A stretch of DNA of 63,855 nucleotides, the filler included, from Octopus bimaculoides (lineage: Eukaryota), in NCBI RefSeq assembly GCF_001194135.2. It is 4 parts of 4 records of this genome, joined end to end, with 100 filler letters (N's around TTAATTAATTAA, not from the genome) between each part and the next. Parts side by side here need not be neighbours in the genome. Positions count along the whole stretch, not along the records: positions 1 to 18,793 come from NC_069002.1; positions 18,894 to 50,869 come from NC_068989.1; positions 50,970 to 61,611 come from NC_069005.1; 1 more part is not named here. One strand, written 5' to 3'. The notes under the pieces are model-generated. The model worked only from the letters and a program-made list of their open reading frames with translations, was not told the origin of the DNA and did no database searches. Positions 346-55,957 of this stretch are shown in pieces. A program made the position numbers and the translations under genes. Positions within the stretch are counted from its first letter, which is position 1. Each line of letters opens with the position of its first letter.

Positions 346-381
346 CTTTTGCGTTTCAAGCTTTTGCTCTTCAACAGAAAG
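346..381 (-). pseudogene. Decayed hammerhead motif at the 3' end of a Penelope-like element
   Basis: On the minus strand: cttt-CTGTTGA-a-GAGC-aaaa-GCTT-GAAA-CGC-A-aaag. Two core substitutions. Same strand as and downstream of the PLE ORF. Confidence 0.5.
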
Positions 382-1059
382 GAATAAGAGAAAATAAACA
401 CAGAGGGAGTGAAAAATATTTGTAGATTCCAGCAGTCCAGCATGGTGAATGTTTGGGAAAAAAAAAGAGGTTGAAAGAAAAGGAGACAATAATGAAGTGC
501 TAGTAATCCCAATAAGAGAAGGTGCACATACGTGTGTGTGTATGTGAGAATGGTGTGTGTGAGTGTGTAAGTGTGTTGTGTGTGTGAGTAGGGGCGAGTG
601 ACTCAGATGTGTGAATGTGTGCATGTATAACGTGTGTGTGTGCTGTGTGTAGCAGTTGTGCTTTTTCACATGGTGTGTACACATGTGTATGTGTCTGTGA
701 CCAAACAGTGTGCATGCATATGGTGTATATATGTGGGTGATAGTTATCTTTGTCTATGTATGTTGCATGTGTATGTATATATAGCCTGTGTTCAGGTATT
801 GTGTGCTTGTGTGGGTGTGGGAGTGTGCATGATGGTGTGTGGTGTATGTACTGAGTTATGGTGTATGTACTGATATGTGTGGTGATGCTATTGAAGATTG
901 TGTGTAGGTGTGTGGATGATGGTGTGGGTGCTGGGAAGTGGTCATTGCTAGTGTGTGTAGAGTGGTGTGGGTTTGGTATCAAATGAAGAGAGGAGGTGAG
1001 GTTGGTGTCAGATGAAGAGAGGAAGTGAGTTGAGCCCATATGGTGCAAAAGACCAAAGA

Positions 1060-2756
1060 GAGAAGATTAATTCCTGTTCACAGTGAAGCAGGAGTCTGGA
1101 TGGCCCCTGTGCAAAGACAGTCAGAACACAGACAGATGTTGTAGTGAATGACCAGTAGAATGGAAACTGTGTAAGACTGGGGTGTCATTGCCAAGTCTGA
1201 TGGTCAGCCAAGTGGCGTCCTATTTGACTGATGTACAGGGAAGGACAGAGAGAGCAGGAAATGCAGTAAATGATATTACGAGAAGTGAAGTTAAAGGAGT
1301 CGGTGATGTGATAGGGATGATGAAGGGTACCTGTGAGGATGGTGGTGTTGGAGAGGTAGCAACAGCATGGATGGGAGCAGGGGAACAAGCCAGGCTGGGA
1401 AGTAGGGTTAGGGAAGAAACTGTAGATCAGGCAATCACACAGGTTATGGAGCTCCTTTCAAGGAGTGAAGGGGTAGGTTGGGGAAGATATGTGAGGTGGA
1501 GGGGGCAGACTGGAATCACCAGAGGGCTTGGAGAATGGTGCGTTGGAGGGGCTGGATGGAGGGGTGGTAGGTGAGGAGAAATTGGAGATGGATAACAACA
1601 GGGCAGGTGCGAGGAGAAAGAGCAGAGGGAAGAAACTGTGGACCAGGAGGTCACAGAAGTTATGGGCTCATTTGAAGGGGGGAAGGGGTAGGTTGGGGAA
1701 GATATGCGAGGTGGAGGGGTTAGACTGGAATCACCAGAAGGCTTGGAGAATGGTACATTGGAGGGGCAGGGTGGAGGAGTGATAGGTGAGGGGAAACAGG
1801 AGATGGGCAACAGTGGGGTGGGTGTGAAGAGAAAAAGCAGAGGCACGGGCCACAGATTGTGTCCTAGCCAGGGCAGTGTGGATAGTGGTGAGGGAATATT
1901 CACGTAGGATGTAGTAGCAAGTTGTGAGTTTAGACTGATTCTCAAAGTCATGGTTGTCACTACAGAGCCTGCACAGACAGGGGAATTGGGAGTAGGGGAT
2001 GGAGAGGTTGGTGTGGGTAGGATGGGAGGAGGAGAAGTTAAGGTAGGAGTGTGATTTAGTGTGTTTGTAGTGGATGGAAATAGTGAGAGCGGAGTTGTGT
2101 TTTCTGACAGAAATGTCGAGAAATTTGATGGAAGAGTTAGAGATAGTGCAGGAGGGAAGGATTGGACAAAAGAGAAGAAGGAGTCTAGTTGTTTGCAGGA
2201 GAGTGAGGTTGCACCGATACAGTCATCGATATAATAACTGTATGGTTCAGGAGTAGGACCAGTGAACTGTGAGAATATTTGGGCCTCAGTGTAGCCAACA
2301 AATGGGTTTCCATAGTTGGTGCCCGTTCTCATTCCCATGGCCACTCCTGAGATCTGTTGGTAAAAATCCCCCACAAACGAGAAGCAGTTGAGGGAGAGAA
2401 CAAATTTGGCCAGATGAAGAAGTGTAGAGGTGTCAGGTTGAGGGTCAGGTCGAAGGTCCAGAAAGTGTTTCAGTGCAAGGAGTCCTTTGTTGTGTGAGAT
2501 CGCTGTTTATAAACTCTTGATATCAAGAATGAACAGAAATTTAGAGCAGCCAGAAGGAAAGGAGAAAGAGTTAAAGAGACAGAGAGCATCATTAGTGTCA
2601 TGGATGTAAGAGGGGAGGGTAGCAACTAGGGGGGCTAGGACACAGCCGAGATATTTGGTGATCATTTCCATGGGGCAGTTGCAGGCGGAGACGATGGGGT
2701 GACCAGGGTTGTTGGGCTTGTGAATTTTGGGAAGGAAGTAAATAGTGGGGGTGCAT
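1060..2756 (-). mobile_element. Penelope-like retroelement, decayed RT plus GIY-YIG, 5' truncated at (TA)n
   Basis: YFLPKIHKPNNPGHPIVSACNCP...LDIKSL (2507-2756), FYQQISGVAMG...YYIDDCIGAT (RT) and ITDSFNFTSRNIIYCISCSLCPSLYISQIGR (GIY-YIG, about 1200-1330). Frameshifts and internal deletion present. Confidence 0.9.
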
Positions 2757-2780
2757 GATATATATATATCTATATATCTA

Positions 2781-2827
<47 letters not shown>

Positions 2828-3341
2828 TGTATAGAGGTAACACACGAGTAAGTAGTTTATTTATGAAAAAGTAGAACGAAAATGCTACTTTCTTAAAATT
2901 GGGTACATTTTAATTTTCCTTTAAATAAATACATTAAGAGAAGAATGTTTTGGTTTTGTTTTACATGTTTCGGTTTTTGAAAAACCTTGTCAAAAATATG
3001 TACTAAAATGGAATATGTAGAGAGAAAAGAGCTATCAATAGAATTAACTTATAATTAAAATCAAGATTTACATTCATAGTTTACTTTCCTTTTTTCTGCA
3101 AGAGTATGTGGTAATTTCCGTTAGTTTCCATGGCATGACAAGTTGAACTGTCTGTGACTGCAAATTACTACTATCTGAGGGTTTTCTCCCCTATCAATAT
3201 AAAGAGACCATGTGCTTTTGTGGCTAAGGAGTCTACAATTCCTATTTCTAGCAATGCTGGTGCTCATTACACCCTTGTCACTCTTAGTGACAGTAACTTA
3301 TTTCCCAGTTGGTTTTAAATTGCTGCTAGCCACCTTGATTA

Positions 3342-3383
<42 letters not shown>

Positions 3384-3430
3384 AAGTTTTTAACTTTACA
3401 ACTTATGTCTCTTTACACTTCAACTCAAAG

Positions 3431-4290
3431 ATGACAGCACACTGGCTGGACCCCAAGACTCACATGAGACGACATGCTGTCCTGGCCTGCTCTTGGCTCA
3501 GAGGACATCACACCGTTGATGTTCTCACCCAGGACATGGTGAACATCCATTAAAAGTTCCATCTGCAAGGCAAGGTAACCAGGATCACGATGGATAATGG
3601 TAAAAACTTTGTTAAGGAATTTATGCAGTTTGGTATGGAAGTTGATCTCTTGCCAGACATTTCTGAGGCTGCTGCCAGTCTGGATGTGGAGGATGTCAAG
3701 GACATGAACCTGGATGTGGATCCTGAAGCTGGTGATGTGGATAAAGTTGAGTATTGAGTACATCTCTGTTGGTGCCATCTTTGATGAGTCAAGCAGCCTG
3801 GGCCTAAACCTGCCATTGCACATGAAGTGCACAGCCCATACCTTCAACTTGGTAACCAGTGTGGATGCCAACAAGGCTCTTGACAGGGCTTCATTCAAGT
3901 TAGCCGACAGGAAGGCCATGTCCGAAGCGCAGCAGCTGTGGTATCTGCAGGGCCGCAGCATGGTGGCAGCAGAGAGCATTCTGGACATGTTGAAGAGGAG
4001 GCTGGCGGTCCTCAACAGTCCCAGATGGAACCCTACCTATGACTCTGAATAGGGGAGCTGTCCACAGGGTGATGACACAGCCAAAGCTGCAGACTTTCAC
4101 TGATTATGATGTCGGCTTCCTGACAGAGTTCACCCAGGTGATGTCTAATGTTGCCAAGGCCTTGGATAAAATCCAGGGGGAGGACCAGGCTTATCTCAGG
4201 TGCCTTCTGCTAACTGTAATGGCTACCATCATGAAGTTGAAGGTGGCCAAGTTCAAACATCTGTATTGCAGTTATCTGGCAGACACGATA
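3431..4290 (+). mobile_element. hAT transposase fragment (pseudogenised)
   Basis: MTAHWLD...LAC...GHHTVDVL, ITMDNGKNFVKEF (first catalytic region DN), LPLHMKCTAHTFNLV (CxxH) and PRWNPTYD (TRWNS-like). Contains stops and frameshifts. Confidence 0.88.
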
Positions 4291-4861
4291 CTGATGTGTG
4301 TTTCAAGCGAGTGTAGACAAGCATATGCACATAGGCACATGTATGTGGGTGTGCATACGCGCATGTGTATGTATGGACATGCGCTCATGCGCGTTTGCCA
4401 TGAGCATATTTACACCTTTACTTTTTATTCTTATTGCTTATTGTTTACACTTTTTTACACTTTTTTTTGTATTTTGCCTTTAGCCCTGTTTTTTCTTGTG
4501 CATGTGCATATATAGACATGTGTGTGAATCTTTTTTGTGCATGTATGTGTGCAAGCATGTATGCGGGTATGTATATATTTTAATTTTTTTTGGCGAATGT
4601 GTGGGTGAGCATGTGTGTGTTTCAAGTGAGGGTGGATGAATATATACATATAGGCACATGTACGTGGGTGTGTGGGTGCGCAAGTGTATGTATGGACATG
4701 CTCACCTTTGCAATTACTATGAACATTTTTATTCCCTTACCTTCACTCCTTCCCCTTACTTAGCGGTCATTCTAATAGCTCTTTTGTCTTAATAATGGTC
4801 AATCACACAGTAATTTCCCTTTGTTTAACAGTCATTTTCATAGCATTTTTTTCGATGGCCC

Positions 4862-4922
4862 GATAGCTGAAGAGATGCCGCCATGGGTTTCTGCCCCAAC
4901 ATCTGAAACTCGCAGTCTTATC
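4862..4922 (+). ncRNA. Type I hammerhead ribozyme motif with GUC cleavage triplet
   Basis: Stem I gatag/ttatc, core CTGAAGA 4867-73, stem II GATG/CATC (one extra T before GAAA), GAAA 4905-08, stem III ACT-cgc-AGT, GTC at 4915-17. Confidence 0.7.
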
Positions 4923-5852
4923 ATGGCTACCGAATAATTGTCACATATTATATTTACATATGTATATATATATATATATNNNNNNNNNNNNNNNNNNNNN
5001 NNNNNNNNNNNNNNNNNNNNNNNNNNNNNNNNNNNNNNNNNNNNNNNNNNNNNNNNNNNNNNNNNNNNNTATATGGGAAGGTGCTGATAAGTTCCTGACT
5101 TTGGGTAAAAGAAAATGCAGGAGGGTCAGTGATGATGTTATTCAACATATTCCCCTCTCAGATTCAAACACTTATCGCAGCAGTCCTTCAGTTTTTCTAA
5201 CTTGGAAAGTTGAATCTCCAGCCAGGCTTTTGGCAATACCTTTAAAGCCAGGAACTTTTCAGCACTCTCTCATGTATGTATGTATACATATATATATATA
5301 TATATATATATAACTGACCTTTAAATAAGGAAAAAAAAAGAGAAACAGTAAAAGACTACTGTTTGAAATAGGCTGACCTGTAAAAAGGTCATTGCAATGG
5401 GCTAGGTCAGCCAATCTCAAATTGCAGTCCTTTTCTTTTTCTTTTTCTCTCTATCTAAAAGTTACCAACACCATATCTTTCCTGTTGCACTCTTGCATAC
5501 AACTAAAACTTCTTGCATACACTTAAGTATTAGGTTAATTACATATTATATCAACCTGTATTGAGTAATAAAATTCTATCCATCACCCAAACCACATTCC
5601 TTCACATACACACATATAAACCCTGGCGTTAATAATTTCTCTTGCATTCTGATGATTTTGATATTCAAAAGAATTACAACCCTGTTAAGCTCCATCCACA
5701 AACAAATGTCAGGCTAACAGTTTGCAATGGAGAGACAACCACTACCGTACTTCTTGTATCAGTCCAACTGGTAATCTAAAGCCTGAAAGAGATGGGCGTC
5801 TGTTAGAGGTTTGTGAAACCTTAAGTCACATGGAGCCAAATCAAACTGTTTT

Positions 5853-5910: not shown

Positions 5911-6424
5911 TACATACATACATACATACATACATACATACATACATTACACATATATACATATATACTGCGACTCTGGCTGGAGTGGTTACTGGTGATA
6001 GAAGGAAAACAGACAACCATTTTATCGGAAGACATGCTTCAGTTTTCTAAATTAACATACATAACATGATGTTGAGTATATATACATATATGCATATATA
6101 GTAGAAGCAATAGATACAGAAGATAGAGTATAGTGGAAACTTTATTTATCGCAGCGATTGTTTCAAAACTAATCAATGAATTACAGTGCGCCCCACAATG
6201 CAGAAGCATCTCTTCAGGTGATGCAACTCAGTTTCTTGTTGTTACATAAGTGATGTTTCGCTTCATGGATGATGCCAGGTAGCCATAAGCAATGAATGTG
6301 CTTTATCAGCATACTACAAGGGACATACCCAAAACACAGTTTAAATTTTAAATTTAAAGGCTGAACTTTAATTTCAACTTACATATATATTTGTGTGTGT
6401 GTGTGTGTGGAAAACAGAAGAACC

Positions 6425-6822: not shown

Positions 6823-8422
6823 TACCATAAAAACCCATGTAATTTGCACACCTGTGTAATTTATGCAGGTGATTTTTCAGGATAAAAATTGTTAAAAGAA
6901 GCTTCTACTCATGTAAAATTCACACCCAAAAGTTTTCAGAATAGTTGATATGGCCAGGGGAAAAAAAGGCTTTAAATTTAGTTGTATTTAGCATAATTTC
7001 ACTTACTTATGATTAGATTTTATTAAATTTTCATCAAATAAAAATAATTTCTGTTTAACAGGTATCACATTAAAGCTATTAAATTACAAAGTGTTTGTGT
7101 TGCCTATATAAATAAAATCAGTTTTGTGGGACTGACATGTGTCAGTGGGACTGACATGTGTCAGTCCATTTTACTTGCTTGGTATCCCCCCCCTTCTCCT
7201 CCCTTATGAGATTGACAATGTCAGCTTGCTTTAGCCACTCGGTATACCCTCCTCCTCCTCCTCCCTCGCCGTTAATGTTCCAATAATAAAAATAAATGAA
7301 AAATATGATGTTGATTGTGTGTGTGTGTTTGCATGTGTGTAACTGTATGAGATTGTGCGTTTAAGTGCATTTGTGTGTGTATGTGTAACTGTATGAGATC
7401 ATGTGTGTTTGTATGTGTACGTAACTGTATGAGACTCTGTGTGCCAGTGTGTGTGTACACGCACGTACATGCATGAGACTGTGTGTTTGTGTGTCTCCAC
7501 ATAACCAGAAATAATCAAAGTATTATTTTACAAATTGTGAGCATATATATATGATATAATGAAGGAAATTGTTGTATACAGTGCTCAGGTGTACTACAAC
7601 TAAAAAAAAAAAACCCATCAGGTGTACTGTTAGCGGATTTCAGGAAGCATGGAAGTTTTGAAGGATGTAGTGTCTCGACAGTTAACAACCGATGTGGGTA
7701 GTTTATTCCATGCTTCAGCAATTCTGAGCATGAAAAAATGTTTCCAAAAGTCATGGGTGTTGTGTTGTGTTTTGATTTTGTTAGCATGTCCACAAGTGTT
7801 TGTCGTATGGAATTCAAAAAGGTGCCCAAGGTTGTTGTTGGAAAGATGGTGGATAATCTTGTTTATAATGAACTTTATTTTACATTTCTTGCCCACAAGA
7901 GATTATGTCTGATCTTTAGCATACTGCTGTATGTCTTCTCAAACAACAATCACAAGAAAAGTTGTTGATAAGAATTATCAACAAAAACAAAGCTGATAAA
8001 TATGCACAGATGTTGCAAATTAAGTTTAATTACCAGTAAACATCAGCTTGGATGACACTTTACTCAACCGAGTAAAATATGGCCCGGACCATGATTACCA
8101 GCATAAACATCAGACTTTAAAAAGTAGTTAACCATTTAATGGTTTTAGTAAATTTATACAGAAAAGTAAATATTATACCATCCAACATAAATAAGTCAAC
8201 TTCATTATATTTAAGCCATTATGTTTTTTCTGTAAAAACCTATTCTGACATTAAATGAGTCAACTTCCTATACGAATGTTTACATTTTGTATGTCTTTTT
8301 TCAACAAAAAAAGTTTCTAAAAATATTCTGGAAACGATCTACTCATGTAATTTACAATCCCACTAAAGTTTAGTTTTTATTTTTGTGGAAAAAGTGCATA
8401 AATTACACGGGTTTTTACAGTA
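6823..8422. mobile_element. TA-flanked Tc1/mariner-type MITE carrying nested insertions
   Basis: Terminal inverted repeats taccataaaaacccatgtaatttgcac (6823) and gtgcataaattacacgggtttttacagta (ending 8422). A CR1 fragment and microsatellites lie inside. Confidence 0.55.
7515..7925 (-). mobile_element. CR1/L2-type LINE 3' fragment
   Basis: NTCGHANKIK...KHFFMLRIAEAWNKLPTSVVNC..SFK, the CR1-type ORF2 C-terminus. Homologous to 59890-60345. Confidence 0.8.
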
Positions 8423-8849
8423 ATTACATATATTTCACAACATATCTGTGAAGATATTTAGTTAAGTAAATGCTAATGTGGTAAGTATGATGACTCGAAA
8501 TACTCAGAGTATAAGCACAAGCATGACTGTGTAGTTCACTTCCCACTCATGAGGTTTTGGGTTCAGTCCTTCTGCATGGCACCTAAAAAGTCTTGTAAGT
8601 GGATTTGGTAGACAGAAATAGAAAAAAATCTTATATATATATACATACACACATTCCAATGTGAGGATATGTACTCATATAAGGTTGAAAACAACCTAGT
8701 TACACTGGTTATTATGCCTTATATATCTATGAGAAAATCTCATTGATTATAAATAGGTATATTAAAAATTTAGAATCTAAAAAGAAGAAAATGGAGAATA
8801 TATAGAGATAAAGTTACTTTATTAACATATAGTTAATAAAAATAAAAAT

Positions 8850-8940
8850 GCCTACAATTTGTTTCAATTTTACTCATTACAAATTTATAAATAAGATAAA
8901 ATTTGCATTTAAAATATAATGAGTAAAATCTCATCAGAGC
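8850..8940 (-). ncRNA. Type I hammerhead ribozyme motif with long stem II
   Basis: On the minus strand: gct-CTGATGA-GATTTTACTCATTA...TAATGAGTAAAATT-GAAA-CAAATTG-TA-ggc. 14-bp stem II and GTA triplet. Confidence 0.7.
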
Positions 8941-8994
8941 CAAATGTTGTTAAGCTGAGATTTTAAAAACAGACTAAAAACATGTAATCATTTG

Positions 8995-9087
8995 GCCCTG
9001 ATGAAGTTTTACTCATACAATATTCTAAATGCAAATTTAATTTTATCTATAAATTTGTAATGAGTAAAATTGAAACAAATTGTTCGC
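8995..9087 (+). ncRNA. Hammerhead motif, inverted copy of 8850-8940
   Basis: gcc-CTGATGA(8998-9004)-AGTTTTACTCAT...ATGAGTAAAATT-GAAA(9072-75)-CAAATTG-TT-cgc. Stem I is partly decayed. Confidence 0.55.
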
Positions 9088-9249
9088 ATTTTTATTAACT
9101 ATATGTTAATAAAGTAATTTTATATCTATATATTTTCTTGTTTTCACATTCTGTGTGTGTGAGTGTGTGTGTGTATGCGAGCATAACATTTTTATTTTAG
9201 TTGAGTCATTCTCTTATTACTCTGGTGTTTTGCCTGTGTGCTCACAGTC

Positions 9250-10640
9250 ATGAGGCAAGTTTCCTTTTACAATAGCTGAAATATTCTAGTATTCATAAAT
9301 CTTGGGGCTTTCATACATTTTTTTTTTGTCACTTAAAGCCACACAACATTTCTGTTTCAAACAATTTTTCACATGGTTTTCACCATAAGATTCATCTTAT
9401 GGATTAAACCATAAGATTCCTCTTATAGAAATCTTTCATTTATATACAACTTTGTATAGTTTCCTTTTACAATAGCAATGATATTTCCACTCAGCCCTCT
9501 ATTTGTTGGTTTCTTACAATTTTTTTATCCCTTAAAGCCAAGCAACTTTTTTTGTATCTAATATTTTTTCACGTGGTTTTCACTATAAGATTCTTCATAC
9601 TGAGTTCTTTCATTTATGTACAACTTTGGTATAGTTTCCTTTGACAATAACTGAGACAATTTGATTCAACCTCAAATTCGGAGCTTCTTATATTGTTTTG
9701 TCATTTAAAGCCATACAACTTTTTTCTAATCAAACAATTTTCCATGCAGTTTTTACCATAACATTTCTCTCATAGTGCACTTTCATTTACACTGAACTTT
9801 CGTTTAGTTTCCTTTTACAATAATCTTATGTTGAAAACAACGGGAAAAAAATATCTAAAAAAAATGGACGTGTGACTTTTAATGACTTTAAAATGGTAGC
9901 CCACAAAATCGAATTTTTTTGCAAAATATCTTAGATTTTGCAAAATAAAACTATACAAAAGTATATAAATGAAAGAGCTCTATAACAGGAATACGAAATT
10001 CAAAAAAAGTAGTGCAGCTCTAAGTAACAAAAACACAGTACAAACCCACCAAAATTGAGTTGGAATAAAATATCTCAGCTACTTAAAAGTACACTACACA
10101 AAATATGTTCAAATGAAATATTTCTATGAAAGGAATCTTATGTTGAAAACCTGTGAAAATTTGTTTGAAAAAGTGTTGTGTGGGACTAAATCTCAAAAAT
10201 TTTTTAAGTAACCCCCAAAATTTTATTTGAATCACAATATTTCAGCTACTGTAAAAGGAAAGTATACAAACAAAAGTTGTATATGAATGAAAGAGCAGGG
10301 CTGGTTCAAGATACTAGCAACTTCAGCAGTTGCCTGGGGCACCATGTGCTAGGGGTTGCTAAGGAGGGTGTGACAAAGACAAGGAAATTTCCATGACTGT
10401 CAGCTTGAACAGGCCAAAGTTCAGCTTGCCCAGGGTGCCAGCAACCCTAGGGCCAGCCCTGTGAAAGAGCTGTATGAGATGAACTCTATGGTGAAAACTA
10501 TGTGAAAAATTATTAGATACAAAACCAGTTGTGTTGCTGTAAGTGACAATAAAATGGTAAGTAACCCCCAAAATTGAGATTGTATCAAAATATCTCAGCT
10601 GTTGTAAAAGGAAGCTATACAGAAATGTATTCACATGAAA
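9250..10640. repeat. Foldback-like element: inverted arms built of tandem subunits of about 175-200 bp
   Basis: Motif gtttccttttacaata recurs at about 9258, 9459, 9633 and 9807. Reverse-complement versions (tgtaaaaggaa) occur at about 10250 and 10600. Confidence 0.55.
10296..10461. mobile_element. hAT-type MITE
   Basis: TIR cagggctgg/ccagccctg and 8-bp TSD tgaaagag at 10288-95 and 10462-69. Confidence 0.85.
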
Positions 10641-11811: not shown

Positions 11812-11990
11812 CAGGTTTGGCTGTGTGGTTAAGAAGTTTGCTTCCCAATCAAGTGATTTTAGGGGATCAGTCCCATTGCATGACACCTTGAGCATCTTCA
11901 GCAAATGTCTTCTTTTATAGTCCTGGGTTGACCAAAGCCTTGTGAGTAGATTTGGTAGACAGAAAATGAAAGAAGCCCATTGTATTGTGT
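11812..11990 (+). mobile_element. tRNA-derived SINE (family B)
   Basis: ggctgtgtggttaagaagtttgcttcccaa...gaccaaagccttgtgagtagatttggtagacagaaa. Related copies at about 8515, 43722, 49990, 52680, 52850 and 56975 (+), and 47135, 47630, 58200 and 59160 (-). Confidence 0.8.
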
Positions 11991-12719: not shown

Positions 12720-13690
12720 CCATCATTCAGACCAAGTCTCAACTCTAAGGATATCAAGAACTTCTTTTACTTCCTATCAGTCTCAGAACCCTCAAAAGGG
12801 TCGAAGGCTTTACCCTTAACCCTCTGACGAAGCACCATGAAAAAAAAAAAAAAATCCTCTTATGCCTAACTTTTCTCTCAAGATGCTTACACTCTGTCAA
12901 ACATGCACACTGACATTGCACATCCAGCGAAGCATACTGGCTTCATTTCTCTCAAGCCTACACATATCCTTGACTGTCACAGCCCATGTCTCACTACCAT
13001 GCGGCATAGCTGTTTGCACACAGGCATCAAACAATCTGCCTTTCACCTTGAGAGAGAGGCCCTTTATTGTCAGCAGGGGTAAGAGCTCTCTGAACTTAGC
13101 TCAGCCTAATCTTATTCACAGAGCTACACTCTCGGAACAACCACCTCCACTACTCACCTGGTCACCTAGATACCGGAAGCTATCTAGTACATCTAACCTG
13201 CAGATTTCTACCACATGTTCAGCATTTATTATGCCTGTGCATCTTTCACGTACAAAAGTTAGTTTCCTTGTTAACCTTCCTCTGATGTTGCTGCACTTTT
13301 TGTGTGTCCAAAGCTTACACTGGGTGTTTCTACCTACAGCTTTTCTACAGATTGAGCAGGGCCGTTTACCTGAGTGGATTTGTGATTTATTTGCCTTCCT
13401 ACTACCTATGACTTTGGTTTTTGCTAGGTTAACTCTAAGGCCCTTTGATTCTAGAGCTTGTCTCCATACCTGGAACTTCTTCTCTAGGTAGTGATTTAGC
13501 CATAAGAGCAATATCATCAGGTAGTGATTCAGCTATAAGAGCAAGGTCATCAGCATAGAGGAGCTCCCAGGGTAGTTTGTCTTGAATTCCTCTGCTATTG
13601 CCTGGAGGACTATGGTGAAAAAGATGGGGCTGAGCATCGATCCTTGGTGAACCCCTACTTGTACCATGAATTCATGTATTCACCTGATGA
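12720..13690 (-). mobile_element. RTE-type LINE RT fragment
   Basis: Minus strand reads GVHQGSMLSPIFFTIVLQAI... then ELLYADDLALIAES, followed by WRQALESKGLRVNLAKTK...FRYLGDQVSSGGGCSESV. Confidence 0.88.
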
Positions 13691-13997
13691 AAACTATTTT
13701 TTCTAATGATGTAATGTTTCCATTAATCAATTAAAAATTCGTTGGAAACAGCTGTAGTGGATTGACACATTATCTATCTGTTGTTATATATTTATTTATT
13801 ATTCACTTCACTTAGAACCTGCTCCTTGCATAGACCCGAAGTATATTATGGACTGTACATTTAGTGCAATGTGTGTTTCCTGATTAGCCTCAAGATTCAT
13901 GATATACTCAGTCAGGTACAGTTAATTGTATACACAACCTGAATATCTTTCTGCCTGTACTTTATTACCTGCATATGAATTCCTCTGTTTTTGTTGT

Positions 13998-14380
13998 TGG
14001 AGGCGCAATGGCCCAGTGGTTAGGGCAGCGGACTCGCGGTCATGGGATTGCGGTTTTGATTCCCAGACCGGGCGTTGTGAGTGTTTATTGAGTGAAAACA
14101 CCTAAAGCTCCACGAGGCTCTGGCAGGGGATAGTGGCGAACCCTGCTGTACTCTTTCACCACAACTTTCTCTCACTCTTACTTCCTGTTTCTGTTGTGCC
14201 TGTAATTCAAAGGGTCAGCCTTGTCACACTGTGTCACGCTGAATCTCCCCCAAGAACTACATTAAGGGTACACGTGTCTGTGGAGTGCTCAGCCACTTGC
14301 ACGTTAATTTCATGAGCAGGCTGTTCCGTTGATTGGATCAACTGGAACCCTCAATGTCGTAAGTGACAGAGTGCCAACAA
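13998..14380 (+). mobile_element. tRNA-derived SINE (family C)
   Basis: Head ggcgcaatggcccagtggttagg...gattcccag. 3' half shared with 54520-54830. Confidence 0.8.
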
Positions 14381-15026
14381 GTTGTGTACACATATTATTT
14401 TACAACCCAACCTGGTGCCTTACCATTTAAGTGTCTGATTCACTTGAATCCTGATCTATTATGTTTGTAAAAGAACTCAGAAGGCTGAGCCTCCAACCAG
14501 GCCTTTTGTGAGACCCTTAAAGCCAGGAACTTTTCAGCACCCCCTCGTAAGTTTGACGCATAGTAAAGCCCTGCTTGCATGTTTGTGATGGTGTTGGCTC
14601 CTCCGCATGTTTTAAATGGCAAACAACTCCACTTACCAAGCTATACATGGCATTAGCAAATTCCCATTTGTTCAATTGGCTAGAAATAACAGCAAAATCT
14701 CCATAAAATCACACCCTGTTGCTTTAATAAAATGATTCATCAGATAATGGGGGTCTGGAGTTCCCTACTCAAAGGGAAAAAGACAGGAGATTCGTGGTTG
14801 GATGCCTCTGATCATCGGTCGACTAAACAACTATGTTAAGATGCTGTACCCTTCTGACATTTCTACCACAATTCAAATGATTTGTTTCTCTGAATCAGCA
14901 AGCTTTATTACTACTCGAAGATCGTATTGATGATGATACTACCTTCATCATCAAGCGAATGAACCAGATAGAAAATAACAGACCTCAAGAGGCAGAGATC
15001 AAATGTCAGACACAAAGAGTGACTAG

Positions 15027-15253
15027 CGAGCTGGCAGAAACGTTAGCACGCCGGGCGAAATGCGTAGCCGTATTTCGTCTGCCGCTACGTTCTGAGTTCA
15101 TATTCTGCCGAGGTTGACTTTGCCTTTCATCCTTTCGGGGTCGATAAATTAAGTACCAGTTACGCACTGGGGGTTGATGTAATCGACTTAATCCCTTTGT
15201 CTGTCCTTGTTTGTCCACTCTATGTTTAGCCCCTTGTGGGCAATAAAGAAATA
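15027..15253 (+). mobile_element. tRNA-derived SINE (family A, tail type 1)
   Basis: Head gagctggcagaaacgttagc...gttcatattc. 15-bp TSD acaaagagtgactag at 15012-26 and 15254-68. Confidence 0.9.
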
Positions 15254-18984: not shown

Positions 18985-19400
18985 ACAAAAAAAGAACATT
19001 TCTGAAAACCAGAATACCAAGAACCTTTCGGAGCGAGTCTTTAAAGGTCATCGTGAGCTCGGCAATGCATAACGTGCACCGTTTCGTCCCCTTTATGTAG
19101 GGGCCTGAGTTCTCGAGTATTTTACATGCGGTCGAGTGTGGAATCTCCTCATCTCGTAATTGCCAGATATCGCTGGCCAGCAATGTCACGTATCTCCTTT
19201 CCGGGACTCTGAAGAAGGCGGATCATTGGAAATACGTTGTTTGAGAGAGTTCCCAGGAAACCCCTGAACACACGAGGATCATTAAGGACTCCCTTGTACC
19301 AGAGAGCATCCTGAGCTCCAGGACAGAGATTTTCGGACCATTCCTACATTTTCGAAAATTCCTGCTGGCCTTTTGCAATCTGCATGGCGGCACCACAACC
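18985..19400 (-). mobile_element. Penelope-like GIY-YIG endonuclease remnant
   Basis: SLKQRISN..., FRVPERRYVTLLASDIWQLRDEEIPHSTACKILENSGPYIKGTKRCTLCIAE resembles the PLE GIY-YIG C-terminus (T.LS.YIW.LK...PY......C.LC..EK). Confidence 0.7.
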
Positions 19401-20429: not shown

Positions 20430-21010
20430 ACATGATGGGCGTTGATGAGGCGTCGACGATACGATAACGGAATCGGTAACATAAGAAGTTTGCCATTTCC
20501 AAGATCCCCAAGTACTTATAGCCCGTCTCTTATATCTGCTTCATAACCTCCCCAGACGGTATCGCTAGCCCGTCCATACATTTGACTGTTCCTCTCTTCA
20601 AGACTAACACACCACACTTTCTCAGTCCGAACTCCAATCTGATATCAGTACTGAATTCTTGGGATTCATTTTTATCAAAGTTTGAGGTCATTCATGAATA
20701 ACAAATGGTTGACTTTTTGCTAGCGGCTTTTGAATACCTACCCAGCTTTTGCTTTCCTCAGAATCAGTGCTAGTGGTATCAAGCACAGTACAAAAGTCAG
20801 TGGGGGCAGGCAGTCCCCTTGGAAGATACCCCTCCTAATTTCTACTATCCCTAAACTTCTTCCGTATGCTGTGAGGTCCGTCCTCCAATTCGCCATACTT
20901 TTTCCAAGCAATCGCTCAACATTCGATGCAACACCAAATAAGTTCATACACTTCATAATCCAAGAATGTGGCATCATATCGCACGCCTTACGATAATCGA
21001 TCCATGACAT
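20430..21010 (-). mobile_element. R4/Dong-clade non-LTR RT fragment
   Basis: [17 protein letters not shown]...IRRGIFQGDCLPPLTFVLCLIPL and DIRLEFGLRKCGVLVLKRG...YKYLGILE. Confidence 0.8.
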
Positions 21011-21181
21011 GACTTTTCCTCCTCTTGCAGTCTCTAAGTACTGTTTTGTCTATCAGGGGTTGATCCTTGGTACCTCTGCACTTACGCTTGCAACCCTTCT
21101 GCTCATGTGGCAGGACTCCATATTATTAACATTTTCATTAGCATCTTCTTTCAATTCTGTTTTCATTTCTTGCGGAGCGTC

Positions 21182-21999: not shown

Positions 22000-23527
22000 C
22001 ATACATACATATACATATATATATATATGCATGTGCAACTATTATATATATGTATATATATGTGTATGTGTGTGTTCGTATGTATGCATATATTCACGTG
22101 TATGTGTGTGCATGTGTAAGCATGGATGTTTATATGTGACATCACTTAAACGAGTGTTAAAGCTTGGGAGAATATGTGAAGTAGATGAGATAGGTGGTTG
22201 AAAGTGTGGGTGTAGTGCTTCGAGTGGGAGTATGAGGTGATGATGGAAAGTGGTGAGAGGGTGGAAAAAAGAACGACCATGTTAAGTGAGTATTATTGAT
22301 GCAGAAAGGAAGATGTAGAGGATCAGAAATAGAGATAAAATAATTATCTTCCGGTTGGAATGAACAATGGAAGAAAATGAAGTTTAATGGAGTCGCTTGT
22401 ACAGGGAGGGAGGTGACAGAGATAGAAAAGAGAAAGAGAGGGAAAAGGGGGAGGTAATGAAAGAAGAAAAATAGTAATGTAAGAGCAAATGATAGAAAGA
22501 GAGAATGAAATAAAATAAGGAATGCGAGAAGGAAGGGTAGGATGGAAGAAAGAAAAAGAATGAAAGAAAGAACAACGGAAAGCTAATAGGCAAGAAGGAA
22601 ATAGAAAGTGAAAGAATGAAACTTGATATAACTGAAAGAAGGAAAATAATAGTGAAAGACAGAAATATCGAACGAATGATTGAATGAATGAGAATGAATA
22701 AGCAAGCAGAAAGGCAGGTTTAAAAACGGGATAGAAATGTAAAAGTGAAAAAAAGGAAATGTCCACTGCCATTACCGTTGACATAAGATGATAGATAAGT
22801 TATTTAGGTGAACACAATACGTGGACAGAAATAACCTCAAGTAATGGGGTACCTTCATAGTGAAGAAAGTTCGGGTTCTATTCTTCGAATGTTATCTTCT
22901 TTTCATACAATTTACTCTCGTGAAGGTTGCGAAAATAAGCTGTAAATTACACTTTACTTATGACGCAACACAGAATGAAAAAAAAGGGAATTATTACAAA
23001 AGAGAAATACGTAGGCTGGGCTTTATTCTGTTTCTTTCGTTTACTTATTTGATATCAGAACAATGACTTCGTTGGTTACGAGTTTGGAACGGGCTGGGTT
23101 TCTCGTGTTGCACGTGCTTGATGCAATGCAATTGGCGTGAGTGATAAGGGAGTGTCAGTAAATCGATGTAGAAATAATACCGCCAAGGACTTCGCTTGAG
23201 CCGTTCTTTTCATTTATATATATATATATAGAGAGAGAGAAGGCTGAAAAGGAACACACGAGTTGATATATATATATGGAAAAAAAGTCAAGGAAGAAAA
23301 TGCTAAAATAATTTAATAAAAAACATTTCAGTACCGGTTTCGGTCATTGAGACGTTTTTGAACTGTAAGTATGGAAAACAATTAAATTCTGGAAAAATTA
23401 AATGAAAAGTGTTTTGAAAGAATATTTGCAGCGACATAAAACTCCCTCATGCACTAAATATCAATCTGTAGAATATTCCTTTTATTCTTCTTGTTATTCT
23501 TAATATTTTCTTTTTTATTATTCAAAG

Positions 23528-23691
23528 GTTTGAGTGAACGTCGTTGTGGACTTGACGGCTATTGGTTGGGCAAATATCAAAATGAGACTTCAAATACAAA
23601 TGGGTGGACAAATTACACAGGATGCTATATACCGGAGGTTTGGGATGTTTACAGTAAAATGTTCGTCGATAAACCAGAAGCGACCAAATTG
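23528..23691 (+). CDS. PDFR: Class B1 GPCR (PDF-receptor-like), exon encoding end of hormone-binding ECD: (G)LSERRCGLDGYWLGKYQNETSNTNGWTNYTGCYIPEVWDVYSKMFVDKPEATKL
   Basis: AG acceptor 23526-27 and GTGAGT donor 23692. Contains the R-C-x-x-x-G-x-W and GWTNYTxCY motifs typical of PDF-type secretin-family receptors. Phase 0 end joins the exon at 37200 in frame. Orthology assigned from motif recall, not a search. Confidence 0.8.
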
Positions 23692-23819
23692 GTGAGTATT
23701 TCATATCTCTTCTCCTTCTTTGTTTTATTTTTGCTCTCTTCATCTAGTTTTCTTTGCTTATTCACATATTTGAACTTTATTTTTTCTGTATACAAGCCTG
23801 CTCTGAATTTTCCTGTTTT

Positions 23820-33741: not shown

Positions 33742-33796
33742 CACCTGAAGAGACACATGAGGAATCGATGCTAGGTGGGTCGAAACAATTGTAGTG
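33742..33796 (+). ncRNA. Minimal type I hammerhead ribozyme with palindromic stem III
   Basis: cac-CTGAAGA(33745-51)-GAC...GTC-GAAA(33782-85)-CAATTG-TA-gtg. Stem III is the perfect palindrome ACAATTGT. Confidence 0.75.
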
Positions 33797-33849
33797 GCTA
33801 ATAAGAATTCTATCTGCCAATATACATGTCACAGATGCATACATATATG

Positions 33850-40639: not shown

Positions 40640-40930
40640 GGAGGTCTCCCTCGTGAGGGAATTCATGGCCAATATGCAAATTTTAGAATTAGAGAATCTC
40701 AAAAACATCTGCCGAAAATTATCCGTAGAATTCTCCACCGTCTCTATTGTTGTCAATCATCGACATTTTATTGCTTTCTATTTGGCTTCCGATCTGAGGA
40801 ATTTGTTTCGAAATACACACGTTGCCTATTTGTTCCAACATGGCATTTATTGGACACTCTGCGACTTATACGACAAACAGGAATGTTTCTTCGATATAGT
40901 CAATGGAGCAGAAATACATTGCTGCAATGA
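40640..40930 (-). mobile_element. Possible Helitron Rep remnant
   Basis: Frame-shifted motifs CISAP..., KSQSV, HVGTNRQRVYFE resemble Helitron YVSAPEA...KSH...VHLPNQQRVYF. Confidence 0.3.
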
Positions 40931-41624
40931 AGTATAAAGCAATACAATTTTTTAGATGTCGGTGTCTAGATCAGATTATTTAATAGTGTCAGATACATTG
41001 AGATATTACACACATATATCGAAAATAATATGGTAGAGAGTGTTCTTGTGTGTAAGGAGAGTGAATACAAAAGAACGTATGTTCTATGCGTAATACATGA
41101 ATATCGATTGAAAAGCTGTAAGCTCTACACTATTTCTTCCTGGTGCTAATCTTTGGAAATCAAAGTCATTTATTTATATTGCGATTACTACCAGACTAAT
41201 TCAGAGACAAGCGTAAATAATTTATTAATCCAGCTGATTCAGCATCTCTGAATGGATAAATGATGTGTATGTTATGTATACATATGTTTCCAGCTGTACG
41301 ATTATTGATGATTACGGGGTGGCATCGCTAAACGGTGATGTGTATACGTACAAGGTTATTACCAGTTCAGATATGCTTGGGAAATATTCGAAGCCATCCG
41401 AAATTCATTCGCCGTGTTTTGTTATGGAGAACATTTCTCCATAACAAAACACGGCGAGTGAATTTCGTATGGAGAAAATTTTCTGCATTACAAAATACGG
41501 TGAATAGCTTTGCTACGGGTTCGAATATACCCCGAGCATATTTGAACTGGTATCAACCTTGTATTGACAATAATAGTTACAAATTTTGACATAAGAGTAG
41601 TAATTTTGAAGGTGTGGGCGAGGT

Positions 41625-51329: not shown

Positions 51330-51960
51330 TTTTTTGCCAAAAGCTTCAAGTAATACATCTCTAGATCTCCCTCCATTCATAGGATCCTTAAGCTTCTAGA
51401 CCCTTCTTTTCCTCTTCCTGGTCATCTTCTGGGCAGCCATTTATCCCTGATCCTGAAGTCGCTAAGTTCTAACCTATGTTGTGGGGTGCATTCTTCACCA
51501 GGGAAACTTTCGGCGTTTATAAGTAGCCATCTTTCTCGTTTCCTGGTGAGAATGTAGCCAATCTGACAAGTGTAGCCACGAGACTTGTAGGCGAACAGGT
51601 GACTGGCAGGTTTCCTGAAGTTAGTATTACAGATCATAAGACCACTTGCATCACAGAACTTCAGCAGCCTGGTTCCCTCCTCACTGCGGGAACCACATCC
51701 GTTCCCACCATGTACACATTGGATGTTGTCCAACATGCCTGTTGAAGTCACCAGTCACAAAGAGAAGGTCCCTGTCTGCAAGAGGGTGTCATAAAATTGG
51801 TCTTTCTGTTCATCAGGTAACCCCGGCTGAGGGGCATAGGCTGAGATAATGGTTGCTAATCCATGTTGCAACACCAATCTAATCCTAAGTATTCTATCAC
51901 AGACTCTGACTTCCTCGGTTACCTTATCAAACCATTTGTCTGCAAGGAGTATAGCCATGC
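51330..51960 (-). mobile_element. RTE-type LINE AP-endonuclease fragment
   Basis: RVCDRILRIRLVLQHGLATIISAYAPQPGL...EEGTRLLKFCDASGLMICNTNFRK...CTPQHRL. Confidence 0.88.
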
Positions 51961-52386
51961 CCCCAGCCCCATGTGTGTGTGTATGTGTGTGGTGAGTGTG
52001 TGTGTGTGTGGTGAGTGTGTGTGCGTGTGTGTATATCTACCTGAGTTTTAACCTGAAATTAGAGTATATGGATCTAATTACTAAAACAAAACCACCACCA
52101 CTACTACTACCACCACCACCACCACCACCACTACTTCTTGACACGAACCAAAGACTGTGCCCTTTTCATTGTCTGAAATAAGGAAAGGACCCATTAGATA
52201 ATGTAAATCTCAGGAAATTGGAAATATATGGAAAGGTCATGGTTGGAGAACCCTTCATTTAAAGGCTTGCCTGATCAGTGTTGGGCTCTACTACTACTAC
52301 TACTGCTCCCACCACCACCACCACCTTCTCTTCCTTCTCTTGAAACATGTGTAATGGTCTCTTTTTTTTTTTCTTTGTCTTTTCAG

Positions 52387-52439
52387 TGCCAGGTGACTGG
52401 TTTGTCCTGGAATTCTTCTGGTTCCGTCATTGCAGCATC
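52387..52439 (+). CDS. WDR34: WDR34/DYNC2I2 exon: CQVTGLSWNSSGSVIAA(S)
   Basis: tttcAG acceptor and GTATCCTTT donor at 52440. Resembles recalled human WDR34 VTSISWNSTGSVVACA. Confidence 0.85.
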
Positions 52440-52849
52440 GTATCCTTTGTTTTTAAAAATTTTTCTTTTTCTTTTCTGAAGACTGGGAGCTGGGAGGGAA
52501 AAATTCCTGACTTTTAGTGTTTGTGCAGCACTTCAAGATATTTGAGTTCATCTCAGACTGAAGCTTGCACCTGAGTTCTTACATCAAGTAAACACCCACT
52601 GCTTCAAGGAACGAGACAGCGAGTGGTCTTACAATGGGCAACGGATTAGTTTTACTCTCTATGATCAGGTATTGTCTGCTTCCCAATCGTGTGGTTCTGA
52701 GTTCAGTCCTACAGCATAGCACCTTGCGCAGAGTGGCTTTTTATTATAGCCCTGAGCTGATCAAAGCTTTGCGAGTGAATTTGATACATGGAAACTGAAA
52801 GAAGCCTGTCATATATGCATCATCATCATCATCGTTTAATGTTGATAGG

Positions 52850-53012
52850 CATAGGGGTAGCTGTGTGGTAAGAAGCTTGCTTACGAACCACATGGTTCCG
52901 GGTTCAGTCCCATTGCATAGCACCTTGGGCAAGTGTCTTCTACTATAGCCTCGGGCCGACCAAAGCCTTGTGAGTGGATTTGGTAGACGGAAAACTGAAA
53001 GAAGAAACGGTA
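52850..53012 (+). mobile_element. SINE family B
   Basis: gtagctgtgtggtaagaagcttgcttacgaaccacatggttccgggttcagtccc...ggtagacggaaaactgaaagaag. Confidence 0.85.
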
Positions 53013-53239
53013 TGTATACACGAGTATACATACAGACCATCTATATCATGGACAATGGATGTTAACTGATGGTTGAATGGAATATTATGGACCCAGTGAA
53101 ATCCTGGATGTTTTATTGGTGGTCGATTGACAGGAAATTGGGGTTTCAAATACACTCGAAGCACCAAAGTGAGGGCCATGGAATTAAGTCTAATGAATGC
53201 ATAGTACTTGTTGTTTTGCCTAAAGTTAGGGGCCTATGA

Positions 53240-53453
53240 TTAACCGTTTTCATACCAACCCATTTCTGACCACCTCACCTGGATCCATAAACACAAATTA
53301 AATTAAAATCTTCCATCAAATTCTCGTTAATTTATGTTCCAAACAACAGCTTAATAACAACAAACTAATTTTGTTAAATTCTTCATTATTTAGGAAATTA
53401 ATTAAAACAAAAGTGAAATATTTCAACAGAAATGTGGTTACAAAAGGGTTTAA
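53240..53453. mobile_element. TTAA-flanked piggyBac-type MITE
   Basis: TTAA-ccgttttcatacc ... ggttacaaaaggg-t-TTAA with imperfect TIRs. Confidence 0.5.
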
Positions 53454-54519
53454 GAGCATTGCAGCCTGACGTTTTCATGTTCCTGTAAATCCAAGATTGC
53501 TTCATCCAATGAGTTTGAGAGAGATTTGGCTTCTATTTCTAGCAGGTGACACCTTGTTTGCTTGTGGAATGTCAGATGTTGTTGGAATAAAGTACAGTGA
53601 GTACAGCAAGGCACATAACTGGGAGCTTGGATGTCCTTGAAAGAAAGTACAGTAAATAGTCTTATAGCCCAGGGGTTTTCAAACTGTGGTCCGCAGACCA
53701 CAGGGGGTCTGCAAGGACAAGACAGGGGGTCAGCAGATACTTTTTATGGGCAATTTGATTTTATATATGTTTTTTAATCAAAATCTTTTAATTGACAATA
53801 AAACCTATTTGTTAAATAAATAAATGTAAAAATATATGTTATTTTAAGCAAATATTTATGTATAAATTTCATAAGCGTTTATAAGCAACTGTGTCTGTAC
53901 AAAGCAGTTTCTATTTATAGTCAGACAAATATATTAGCTGTGAGTGTCAGCTTGAAATATTTGGTCTTGTTTTCTTTTTATGAGGTTTTTCCCCACATTT
54001 TTATCGTTCCTGCTGTCTCATGTTAACACCTCACTAAATTTTCTGGGTCCATTTTTCATTGATTTGTCTGTTTTTTTTCCCAGCCATAACTATCTCATAA
54101 TTTATATAGTTTTTTTCTTCTTTTTTCGTTTTTTTTTTCCTCATGTTTTGAGTACCTCATTTAATGTTTCTTTCTGTTTTTTTTTTTTTTTAATAATATT
54201 GTGTGTGTGTGTGTGTGGTGGTTTGAATGTTATGGTTCTGTTCTCATAAAGCTGACACACAATTAATGCCATTTCAGCTGTGACAAATAAGTCTTGTTTG
54301 TTTTGGTTTTGTAGATGTAAATATACATCAAGAAAAAAAGAAAAAAGAAAAAAAAAAACAAACAAACAAACAAAAAAAAAAATGAAAGCCACATCTTCTC
54401 TGCCTCCTTCCCGTCATTCCCTTACTGCTGCTGCCAAACCCACCACCACCACCACCGCTGCTGCTGCTACTACTACTACTACTACTTCTACCACCACCAC
54501 CACCACTGCTGCTGCCACT

Positions 54520-54830
54520 GCTACTACTACTACTACTGGTACTCTGTTGGTTATGGCAATGAGGATTCCTGTTGATCCGTGCAAGTGGTTGAGAGCTCCA
54601 CAGACACACATCCCCATGACATTAGTTCTCAAGGAGATTCAGTGTGACACAGAATGTAACAAGACTGGGGCCCTTTGCAATTCTGGTATAACCTCATTTC
54701 TGCCGGCTGAGTGGCCTGGAGCAATGTGAAAATAAAGTGTCTTGCTCAAGGAGACAACGCATTGCCAGGAATCAAACTCATGACTTTACAATTGTGAGCC
54801 AAGTACCCTAACCACTACACCAATGTCTTC
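54520..54830 (-). mobile_element. tRNA-derived SINE sharing family C tail
   Basis: Minus strand tggtgtagtggttagggtacttggctcac...gagtttgattcctgg. 3' half matches the 13998 element. Confidence 0.75.
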
Positions 54831-55098
54831 ACACTACTACTATTAACAACAACAACATTCATAATTTTGGCCCAAGGCCAGTAAATTTGAGGGTGAGGTG
54901 GGGACGGGGGTGTTTGATTACATCAATCCCAGTACGCTACTGATATTTTATTGATACTTGATTCAGCAAACAAGATGAGGCCCTTAGTTACCAACAAAGC
55001 TCTCTGACCTTTGCACAGCCTGTTCTTATTCTTTATGTATGGTGCTTGATGTTGAGTTTTCACTGTGTTTTTCAGCAATTCCCTTAACTCGATCCTAG

Positions 55099-55280
55099 GT
55101 ATGGTCGGTTTGACCATGACAGTTGGTGTACGCACAAGGCTGCCCTCTGCACTTGGAATATAGACAGTCAAACCTTGGACCCGAGAAAAGCCAGCAAAGT
55201 CATTGAGCTATCATGTTGTTTGATGTGTGTTGCCTTCCACCCAGCCAACCCAGCTCTTGTGTGTGCAGGAAACTTCAACG
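55099..55280 (+). CDS. WDR34: WDR34 exon: YGRFDHDSWCTHKAALCTWNIDSQTLDPRKASKVIELSCCLMCVAFHPANPALVCAGNFN(G)
   Basis: 182 nt, phase 2 to phase 1, GTAAGT donor at 55281. Resembles human YGRLDHGDWS...CAWNLD...LCLAFHP. Confidence 0.92.
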
Positions 55281-55368
55281 GTAAGTGATGACAGGAGAAA
55301 GATCACAACAGATGCCATTTACATTATTTACATTTGACAGATATTTGTCCTCATCTTGTTTGTTGTTA

Positions 55369-55412
55369 ACACAACGTTTCGGCTGATATACCCTCCAGCC
55401 TTCATCAGGTGT
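55369..55412 (-). ncRNA. Minimal type I hammerhead motif (left arm of inverted element)
   Basis: On the minus strand: acac-CTGATGA-a-GGCTG-gagggtatat-CAGCC-GAAA-CG-TT-gtgt. Palindromic ACGT stem III, 4-bp stem I, 5-bp stem II. Confidence 0.65.
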
Positions 55413-55637
55413 ATTGCGGAAATTTTGAACCTGGGCTCTCATTCCTAAGGTATTTTTCGATGTTGTTGTTATTAATATTTTTATCATATACACATAGGCA
55501 TATGGCGTAGTGGTTAAGAGCAAGGGCTACGAACCCCAAGATTCCAAGTTCGATTCTAAGCAGTGACCTGAATAATAATAATAATAACATTGAAAAATAC
55601 CTTAGGAACGAGAACCCAAGTTTGAAATTTCCCCAAG

Positions 55638-55681
55638 ACGCCTGAAGAAGGCTGGAGGGTATATCAGCCGAAACGTTATGT
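55638..55681 (+). ncRNA. Minimal type I hammerhead motif (right arm)
   Basis: acgc-CTGAAGA(55642-48)-a-GGCTG...CAGCC-GAAA(55670-73)-CG-TT-atgt. Stem I has one mismatch and one wobble. Confidence 0.55.
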
Positions 55682-55957
55682 TAACAACAAACAAGATGAG
55701 GACAAATATCCGTCAAATGTAAATAATGTAAATAATGCTCATAATTCCTCATCTCTTAAATATAGAACTGTAAGATGCCATTTAACCCTTTAGAAATCAC
55801 AGATTTTGATGAGGTAGTCATTTATTTTTAGAACGACATTATAGGGTAGGTAAGAGAGGCTGAATGTGGCTAGTTGGAATAACCCCAACTTCATATTAGA
55901 TTAATCTACCTGACCTCTTTTGAGCTTTACCTGAAATATCCATTCTATCTTTTGCAG

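Follow-up and report, generated by a model that had tools for sequence, protein, structure and literature searches.

Hammerhead motifs and Penelope-like remnants in the window

A stretch of 63,855 nt from Octopus bimaculoides (assembly GCF_001194135.2), composed of four parts of four records joined end to end and called hereafter the window, was analysed for type I hammerhead ribozymes and for coding remnants of Penelope-like elements (PLEs). It has a GC content of 36%, many microsatellites and 1,232 N. Twelve motifs with the shape of a hammerhead were found in it, which belong to about nine repeat families unrelated to one another, together with two PLE coding remnants (Table 1). The repeat that will concern us most, called family A, and the unit that carries motif 56332- both sit in introns of a WD40 gene (exons at 52396-58560, Pfam WD40, E 2.7e-5), which we take to resemble the dynein-2 intermediate chain WDR34. 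Motifs are named after the first C of their core and their strand. Eight of them (55408-, 33745+, 55642+, 56332-, 13684+, 8937-, 4867+ and 8998+) reach a score of at least 18 with a tolerant descriptor, and the other four are 377-, 2993-, 6217- and 23362-.

Table 1. Hammerhead motifs, the repeats that carry them, and PLE remnants in the window (positions in nt of the window)
Feature	Position	Strand	Structure or basis
Family A insertion	55322-55772		inverted arm, joint, tRNA-like head, (AAT)n, body like a PLE end repeat (pLTR) with hammerhead, one-sided tail
Minimal type I hammerhead (55408-)	55369-55412	-	intact core; an additional A follows A9; palindrome ACGT; cut predicted after 55373
tRNA-like head	55497-55570	+	A box 55503, B box about 55547; fixed 5' start near 55487-55497
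Second hammerhead copy (55642+)	55637-55682	+	stem I broken at two places in the window copy; predicted cut after 55677
Tail, about 36 nt, right unit only	55736-55772	+	arm alignment; family contig ends
332-bp multi-copy unit with type I hammerhead (56332-; 56214-56337, long stem II, ACAGCTGT)	56158-56489	-	10-bp direct repeat at borders
Type I hammerhead (33745+)	33741-33797	+	core intact, ACAATTGT; tolerant score and sub-threshold Rfam match
Type I hammerhead (4867+)	4862-4922	+	stem I of 5 bp and stem III of 3 bp; an additional T precedes GAAA
Type I hammerhead (13684+)	13678-13762	+	stem I of 6 bp, ACAGCTGT; A facing G at stem II base; unit about 13674-13974
Head-to-head fold-back, two hammerheads (8937-, 8850-8940; 8998+, 8995-9087)	8772-9152		stem II at least 12 bp
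Decayed type I hammerhead in multi-copy repeat (6217-)	6148-6222	-	U16.1 changed, stem II eroded; score 13.9
Minimal hammerhead, U3-A8 core pair, ACATGT (2993-)	2959-2996	-	ends in (TA)n run directly 5' of PLE remnant
Decayed U3-A8 minimal hammerhead, G5 changed, ACCGGT (23362-)	23329-23366	-	3-8-pair descriptor
Decayed minimal hammerhead, A6 and U16.1 changed (377-)	345-381	-	about 630 nt beyond PLE frame end, same strand
5'-truncated broken PLE, reverse transcriptase then GIY-YIG endonuclease	1011-2752	-	tblastn E 2e-92 to P0002
C-terminal PLE-type endonuclease remnant, two opposed pieces	19031-19340		tblastn of relatives: P0005 aa 236-312 on -, aa 306-327 on +
Possible PLE endonuclease end	61303-61365	-	weak; 21-aa match, E 0.35 versus window, 4e-4 only versus local 440 bp

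The original prediction, made from the sequence alone, had placed type I cores at 4862, 8850/8995, 33742 and 55369/55638, and decayed versions at 346, 2959, 6150 and 23329. All of these motifs exist, most of them on the predicted strand and no more than a few bases from the predicted site; 13684+, 56332- and the tRNA-like head of family A come in addition. The cores were all recovered, with an extra T in 4867+ and a stem I mismatch adjoining the core in both 8998+ and 55642+. Among the versions thought to be decayed, 377-, 6217- and 23362- are so, and 2993- is not, its U3-A8 swap being a published core variant. A palindromic stem III, predicted for most motifs, was found for instance as ACGT, ACATGT and ACCGGT; it is missing from 4867+, where stem III is a genuine 3 bp, and from 8937- and 8998+, where loop III, ACAAATTGT, is one base short of a palindrome.

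The PLE remnant at 1011-2752, predicted at 1060-2756, has the order reverse transcriptase then GIY-YIG, and no hammerhead family unit contains it. It is interrupted by stops and frameshifts and bears a 218-bp internal duplication (1410-1843). The related protein P0002 matches Pfam RVT_1 then GIY-YIG and has a Cys linker, which points to the Neptune/Nematis type as the probable one (PMC8557442). The second remnant (19031-19340, predicted at 18985) has 45 relatives at E<=0.001. We take it to be a PLE endonuclease from the YIG and Cys motifs of these relatives. Its two pieces meet near 19272, an arrangement that resembles an inversion made during insertion. Of a third remnant, predicted at 61190, a weak match was left. 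Pfam detected no PLE domain in 21 frames of the window, and the remnants were found through homologues.

Comparison with shuffled sequence and with Rfam

Compared with shuffled sequence, the full type I architecture is over-represented in the window, but the bare box CTGANGA is not enriched (35 in the window, versus a shuffle mean of 27.7 and a maximum of 47). A strict type I descriptor gave two matches (55408- and 8937-) versus 0.03 per shuffle (300 shuffles), and the eight motifs with a tolerant score of at least 18 compare with a shuffle mean of 0.06 and a maximum of 2 (338 shuffles). These margins are flattered, because the descriptors and score weights, including those for the 3-8 pair given below, were set after the motifs had been viewed. 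Motifs 377- and 6217- score 15.5 and 13.9, in a range where shuffles yield 0.6-1.8 matches; they are therefore not significant alone and rest on their context. Both 2993- and 23362- carry a U3...A8 core, in which a Watson-Crick 3-8 pair is retained. With a descriptor for this pair, 2993- matched without any other core change and 23362- with one (G5). A match like that of 2993- arose in 0.2% of 500 shuffles, and two such matches in none of them.

The Rfam model Hammerhead_1 gave a sole match (33739-33799, 18.3 bits), under its gathering score of 34. It found nothing at 4820-4950 or 55300-55800, where motifs had been predicted, and nothing among the best 150 of 213 whole-window matches, these 150 being microsatellite and fold-back look-alikes only. 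As to the predicted lack of relatedness between families, it holds for the flanks: none of 90 flank comparisons survived correction (best p 0.01). Motifs 2993- and 23362- have one downstream stretch in common (p 0.013, uncorrected).

The family A insertion

Family A bears the textbook footprint of PLE integration, namely an inverted arm, a one-sided tail and a target duplication. An exact 12-bp direct repeat (55310-55321 and 55773-55784) flanks the insert, and loose read ends at 55321 and 55772 mark the same borders independently of this repeat. The arms are 91% complementary over 163 nt, and the inverted arm extends to 55479. Contigs of the family stop at 55736/55737 (171 and 308) and at 55772 (330).

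The family is very abundant, with a depth about 10^4-fold over the flanks (summed DNA depth 0.85-3.2 million versus 45-54, run X1; this sum is not a copy number). Among the 15 joints listed of 293, at least five (nine contigs) fuse inverted arms of differing lengths to 55496/55497. The head and the hammerhead are therefore linked at other loci as well, and the 5' start of the family is fixed. The reads also mend the second hammerhead, since the letter A at 55640, present in 605/656 and 617/658 RNA reads (X21) and in 99% of DNA depth, restores its stem I. An exact-pattern scan of metagenome contigs for family A gave no match.

The tRNA-like head is the sole match in the window to an A box plus a B box; one of 300 shuffles gave such a match. 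It aligns to the heads of another repeat of the window (scores 39.5 and 36.5, versus a background of 14.9+-3.1). ARAGORN with a lowered threshold made 21 weak calls in the window, none of them at this head. At least three abundant families resembling short interspersed elements (SINEs) are present at 11820-11985, 13998-14209 and 15026-15211, with related copies, and one of them has a head similar to that of family A.

Family A has the A/B-box head and the fixed 5' end of a tRNA-derived SINE. A 3' end derived from a long interspersed element (LINE) and a simple-repeat tail were not found in it; its 3' end is of PLE type, with two fixed stops. A tRNA head on a PLE-type end would be either a PLE-mobilised SINE or the tRNA-promoter repeat of an autonomous PLE.

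Other hammerhead units

Three families are clearly multi-copy in the reads: 55408/55642 (family A), 56332 and 6217. Summed depth over the 56158-56489 unit is about 6,000-39,000, versus about 45 in its flank, and in stem II of 56332- a G-C pair is made complete by the letter that the majority of the reads have at 56236. The 6217 repeat has depths of 2,010 and 2,910, versus 18-21 and 45-58 for single-copy pieces (about 50-100 times). Both are non-coding multi-copy units within the 150-450 bp of retrozymes, and the first resembles a retrozyme monomer. The 13684 unit agrees in part with this description: it is multi-copy at least at 13935 (depth 5,851, 79 contigs), and the depth bin over the motif itself may contain spill from an adjoining LINE.

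Motifs 13684+ and 56332-, the flanks of which are unrelated, share two features: the base of stem II has an A facing a G, where the usual pair is G10.1-C11.1, and helix III is the same ACAGCTGT. No publication of this stem II variant was found in the open-access literature. Around the 8772-9152 fold-back no target duplication was found, and of the PLE footprint the inversion alone is present. Direct repeats of 8-12 bp near 6217, 13684, 33745, 377, 2993, 4867 and 23362 are no more than chance would give over the ranges scanned, and no weight was put on them. The hammerhead at 345-381 is likely the 3' end of the 1011-2752 PLE itself, given its distance and strand. Motif 23362- lies near, and on the strand opposite to, a putative frame at about 23550-23700 that is described below.

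RNA data

Three raw RNA runs of one study were used, about 6% of each being read; family A and the 56332 unit were followed in three runs and the other sites in two. Family A gave about 250-1,450 reads per direction, equal in both directions, with no start pile-up. The original prediction had called for read ends or circular junctions at the cut sites, and neither was seen in the reads used. No pile-up of RNA ends occurred at 55373, 55677 or 56219, nor at 6153, 8853, 9084 or 13756, where depth was low. Unit-length back-joints were absent among the joints listed, and libraries of this kind can lose small circles. A back-joint from 55772 to 55582 was rejected as a circle, as it contains 15 extra letters and is present in one DNA contig, and is thus a genomic locus.

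Along 55250-56500, the RNA runs show 45-56 A>G and 41-44 T>C places, and the DNA contigs 30 and 12; RNA and DNA come from different individuals, and no use was made of the difference. This excess may reflect adenosine-to-inosine editing of fold-back repeats.

Origin of the motifs

We consider it quite probable that the motifs are the 3' end repeats of Penelope-like retrotransposons, together with short non-coding passengers, which PLE protein put in place by reverse transcription that was primed internally on each of the two strands, with decay afterwards. Most sites can be read as easily as truncated PLE ends or as non-autonomous elements. By analogy with published PLE biochemistry, the protein would bind the RNA near the hammerhead and nick AT-rich DNA. 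Reverse transcription would then start at two internal positions of the RNA, separated by about 36 nt, one per DNA strand; for family A these would be 55735 and 55772, i.e. 58 and 95 nt beyond the cut site. The outcome would be two outward-pointing 3' ends joined head to head. Most copies would stop early, leaving the hammerhead-bearing end alone, which would then decay. Cutting by the ribozyme would require a partner copy or a protein, and insertion would be independent of cutting. Family A is likely transcribed from a polymerase III promoter of its own, derived from a tRNA; such a promoter would account for both the fixed 5' start and the very high abundance of the family.

Several observations weigh against this interpretation. 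The prediction that PLEs mobilise several hammerhead families, mostly non-coding, is partly supported by three multi-copy families and one PLE footprint, but no enzyme partner could be tied to any hammerhead family. No target duplication other than that of family A reaches significance by itself, and the depth of 8937/8998 is only about 6-9 times that of single-copy pieces. Read depth covers seven of the twelve motifs (6217, 8937, 8998, 13684, 55408, 55642 and 56332). The pairing evidence consists of majority read letters at single pairs, and at 55678 the pairing letter is found in 80% of RNA reads but in 15% of DNA depth, probably because contigs bearing it get placed on the left arm. Neither ARAGORN nor Rfam calls the family A head as a tRNA. 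Finally, equal family A RNA in both directions agrees with read-through of host transcription, and a dedicated transcript is not apparent from it.

It is hardly credible that the motifs merely look like hammerheads by chance, as AT-rich repeat DNA might, even though the bare core is not enriched, the descriptors were tuned afterwards, two motifs lack significance on their own, and local folding energies are unremarkable for most motifs. The excess of full motifs over shuffles, the family reads that restore broken pairs, and the U3-A8 covariation all speak against it, and for the eight strong motifs the shuffle comparisons and the pair-restoring reads rule a chance origin out. A serious possibility, though one that falls below an even chance, is that the motifs of canonical type (56332, 13684, 33745, 6217 and 4867) are solo copies of live retrozymes, lacking long terminal repeats (non-LTR), whose tandem arrays would lie in other parts of the genome and give rise to circular RNAs. 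It is compatible with an origin from PLE ends and passengers. In unit length (about 300-400 bp), in a stem I of 5-6 bp and in a loop III that is a four-base palindrome, they agree with the retrozymes of mussel and axolotl (PMC7229834), solo monomers are common in such families (10.64898/2026.07.22.740005), and the 56158-56489 unit is of suitable length, multi-copy and bordered by a direct repeat. On the other hand, head-to-tail tandem units are absent from the window, where all motifs are solo or head to head; the paired motifs, being on opposite strands, cannot pair as a tandem dimer within one transcript. Circular folds of seven candidate units, with guessed boundaries and old copies, showed no stability beyond that of shuffles (z -1.25 to +1.06), and RNA ends at the cut sites were lacking. 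Of the Xenopus dimers, one of nine was cleaved (10.64898/2026.07.22.740005), and a cofold of two 55408 copies formed helices other than a hammerhead dimer, which is uninformative. Within the window, then, the retrozyme system with circles or working dimers that had been predicted found no support.

For family A itself, the reading as a SINE that uses Penelope rather than LINE enzymes comes close to an even chance without reaching it. A tRNA-derived polymerase III head would have been fused to a hammerhead-bearing PLE end, giving an order of ten thousand copies, each with the footprint of inverted arm, tail and duplication. It is also possible, though less likely than not, that 55497-55772 is the pLTR of an autonomous PLE with a tRNA-derived promoter, the copies being its stumps and not a separate passenger. 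In the left arm, a frame of 41 codons begins with an ATG at 55442(-) and stays open across the hammerhead as far as the arm end, as the pLTRs of Poseidon and Pen2a hold their start of the open reading frame (ORF; PMC3846280, PMC11167929), and a T at 55609 in most family A reads creates an ATG in the right unit too. However, the right unit of the window has ACG in place of ATG, plus a stop in that frame, and the 41-aa frame has no relative among longer proteins (a weak test). Loose ends are heterogeneous on either side, before 55497 (agreement 0.43) and behind 55772 (0.41), and most copies therefore join no common ORF.

Other features of the window

Frames at about 23550-23700 and 40640-40810 resemble, we presume, exons of class B G-protein-coupled receptors, and have no Pfam match. 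Pieces at 3708-4515, 12841-13665, 20738-21049, 51422-52036, 7630-7902 and 60017-60430 are taken by us to be hAT-like transposase and LINE remains, of which 20738-21049 has a Pfam RVT_1 match. A 215-bp imperfect palindrome (41349-41563, 76%) has no hammerhead match and is possibly a miniature inverted-repeat transposable element or another fold-back. An AT-rich unit of 70-160 bp recurs at 9258-10640 in clustered copies, some direct and some inverted (72-84% identity); of this cluster, 9260-10084 is low copy elsewhere.

Discussion

PLE hammerheads and PLE-derived retrozymes are already published (PMC4209133, PMC7229834, 10.64898/2026.07.22.740005), and the comparisons made here are with the accessible portions of the papers cited. 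Minimal hammerheads of PLEs occur as thousands of mostly solo copies per genome, in many unrelated families (PMC4209133). The motifs of the window resemble them in the unpaired base after A9, the short stem I, the palindromic helix III and the U3-A8 variant, which was described for Schistosoma PLEs, and also in the pairs of motifs on opposite strands 100-700 bp apart, the many unrelated families and the mostly solo state (PMC4209133). They differ from the description given there in the A opposite G of 13684 and 56332, where G10.1-C11.1 is conserved, and in the tRNA-like head, none being described in the portion available. A high density of hammerheads is expected in a PLE-rich invertebrate genome (thousands per genome, PMC4209133, PMC7229834), and the window therefore adds a host, not a mechanism. 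Among cephalopods, the giant squid genome has 235 Hammerhead_1 matches (PMC6962438), and the word 'ribozyme' is absent from the main text of an Octopus vulgaris repeat annotation (PMC13282606). The accessible text of PMC10886601 holds nothing on the subject.

Family A is similar to the insertion units of PLEs (PMC8557442; Pen2a_Av, PMC3846280; Poseidon_Ac, PMC11167929), with an inverted 5'-truncated arm, a 30-40-nt one-sided tail and an 8-12-bp duplication. As in these units, it ends downstream of the cut site, and no RNA ends are seen at that site. Unlike them, its insert has no ORF and it has a fixed 5' start at an A/B-box head, versus a TATA/Inr promoter. For Poseidon, the tail is the gap between two internal starts of reverse transcription; in vitro, cutting by its hammerhead needs protein and is dispensable for insertion, and RNA-seq is without cut-site ends (PMC11167929).

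The non-LTR retrozymes of animals (PMC7229834; Li, Clavereau and Pollet 2026, 10.64898/2026.07.22.740005) are likewise non-coding type I units of 300-400 bp found alongside PLEs, with a proposed dependence on them. They are defined by tandem arrays that yield circular RNA, whereas the motifs here are all solo or head to head. Family A can also be compared with the SINE-like repeats Sm-alpha and Sj-alpha of Schistosoma, which unite tRNA-derived sequence and a hammerhead in one short repeat; polymerase III transcription is known there and putative here (PMC2770079, PMC6765202). Those repeats are tandem, with a canonical hammerhead that frees monomers, and a PLE-type arm, tail and duplication go unmentioned in the accessible text of these two papers. 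The sole departure of the window from published systems is the tRNA head on a PLE-type end, and a search of open-access literature listings found no publication of a tRNA-headed element with a PLE footprint.

The integration route of PLEs and the role of their ribozyme are open questions (PMC11167929). Both can be put to the test with family A, which is 280 nt long, has one fixed start and two fixed 3' stops, and exists in very many copies. If it is a SINE of the kind proposed, it would show that PLE protein can mobilise a polymerase III RNA in trans, and its thousands of independent insertions would make it a short natural substrate on which the integration of PLEs could be worked out.

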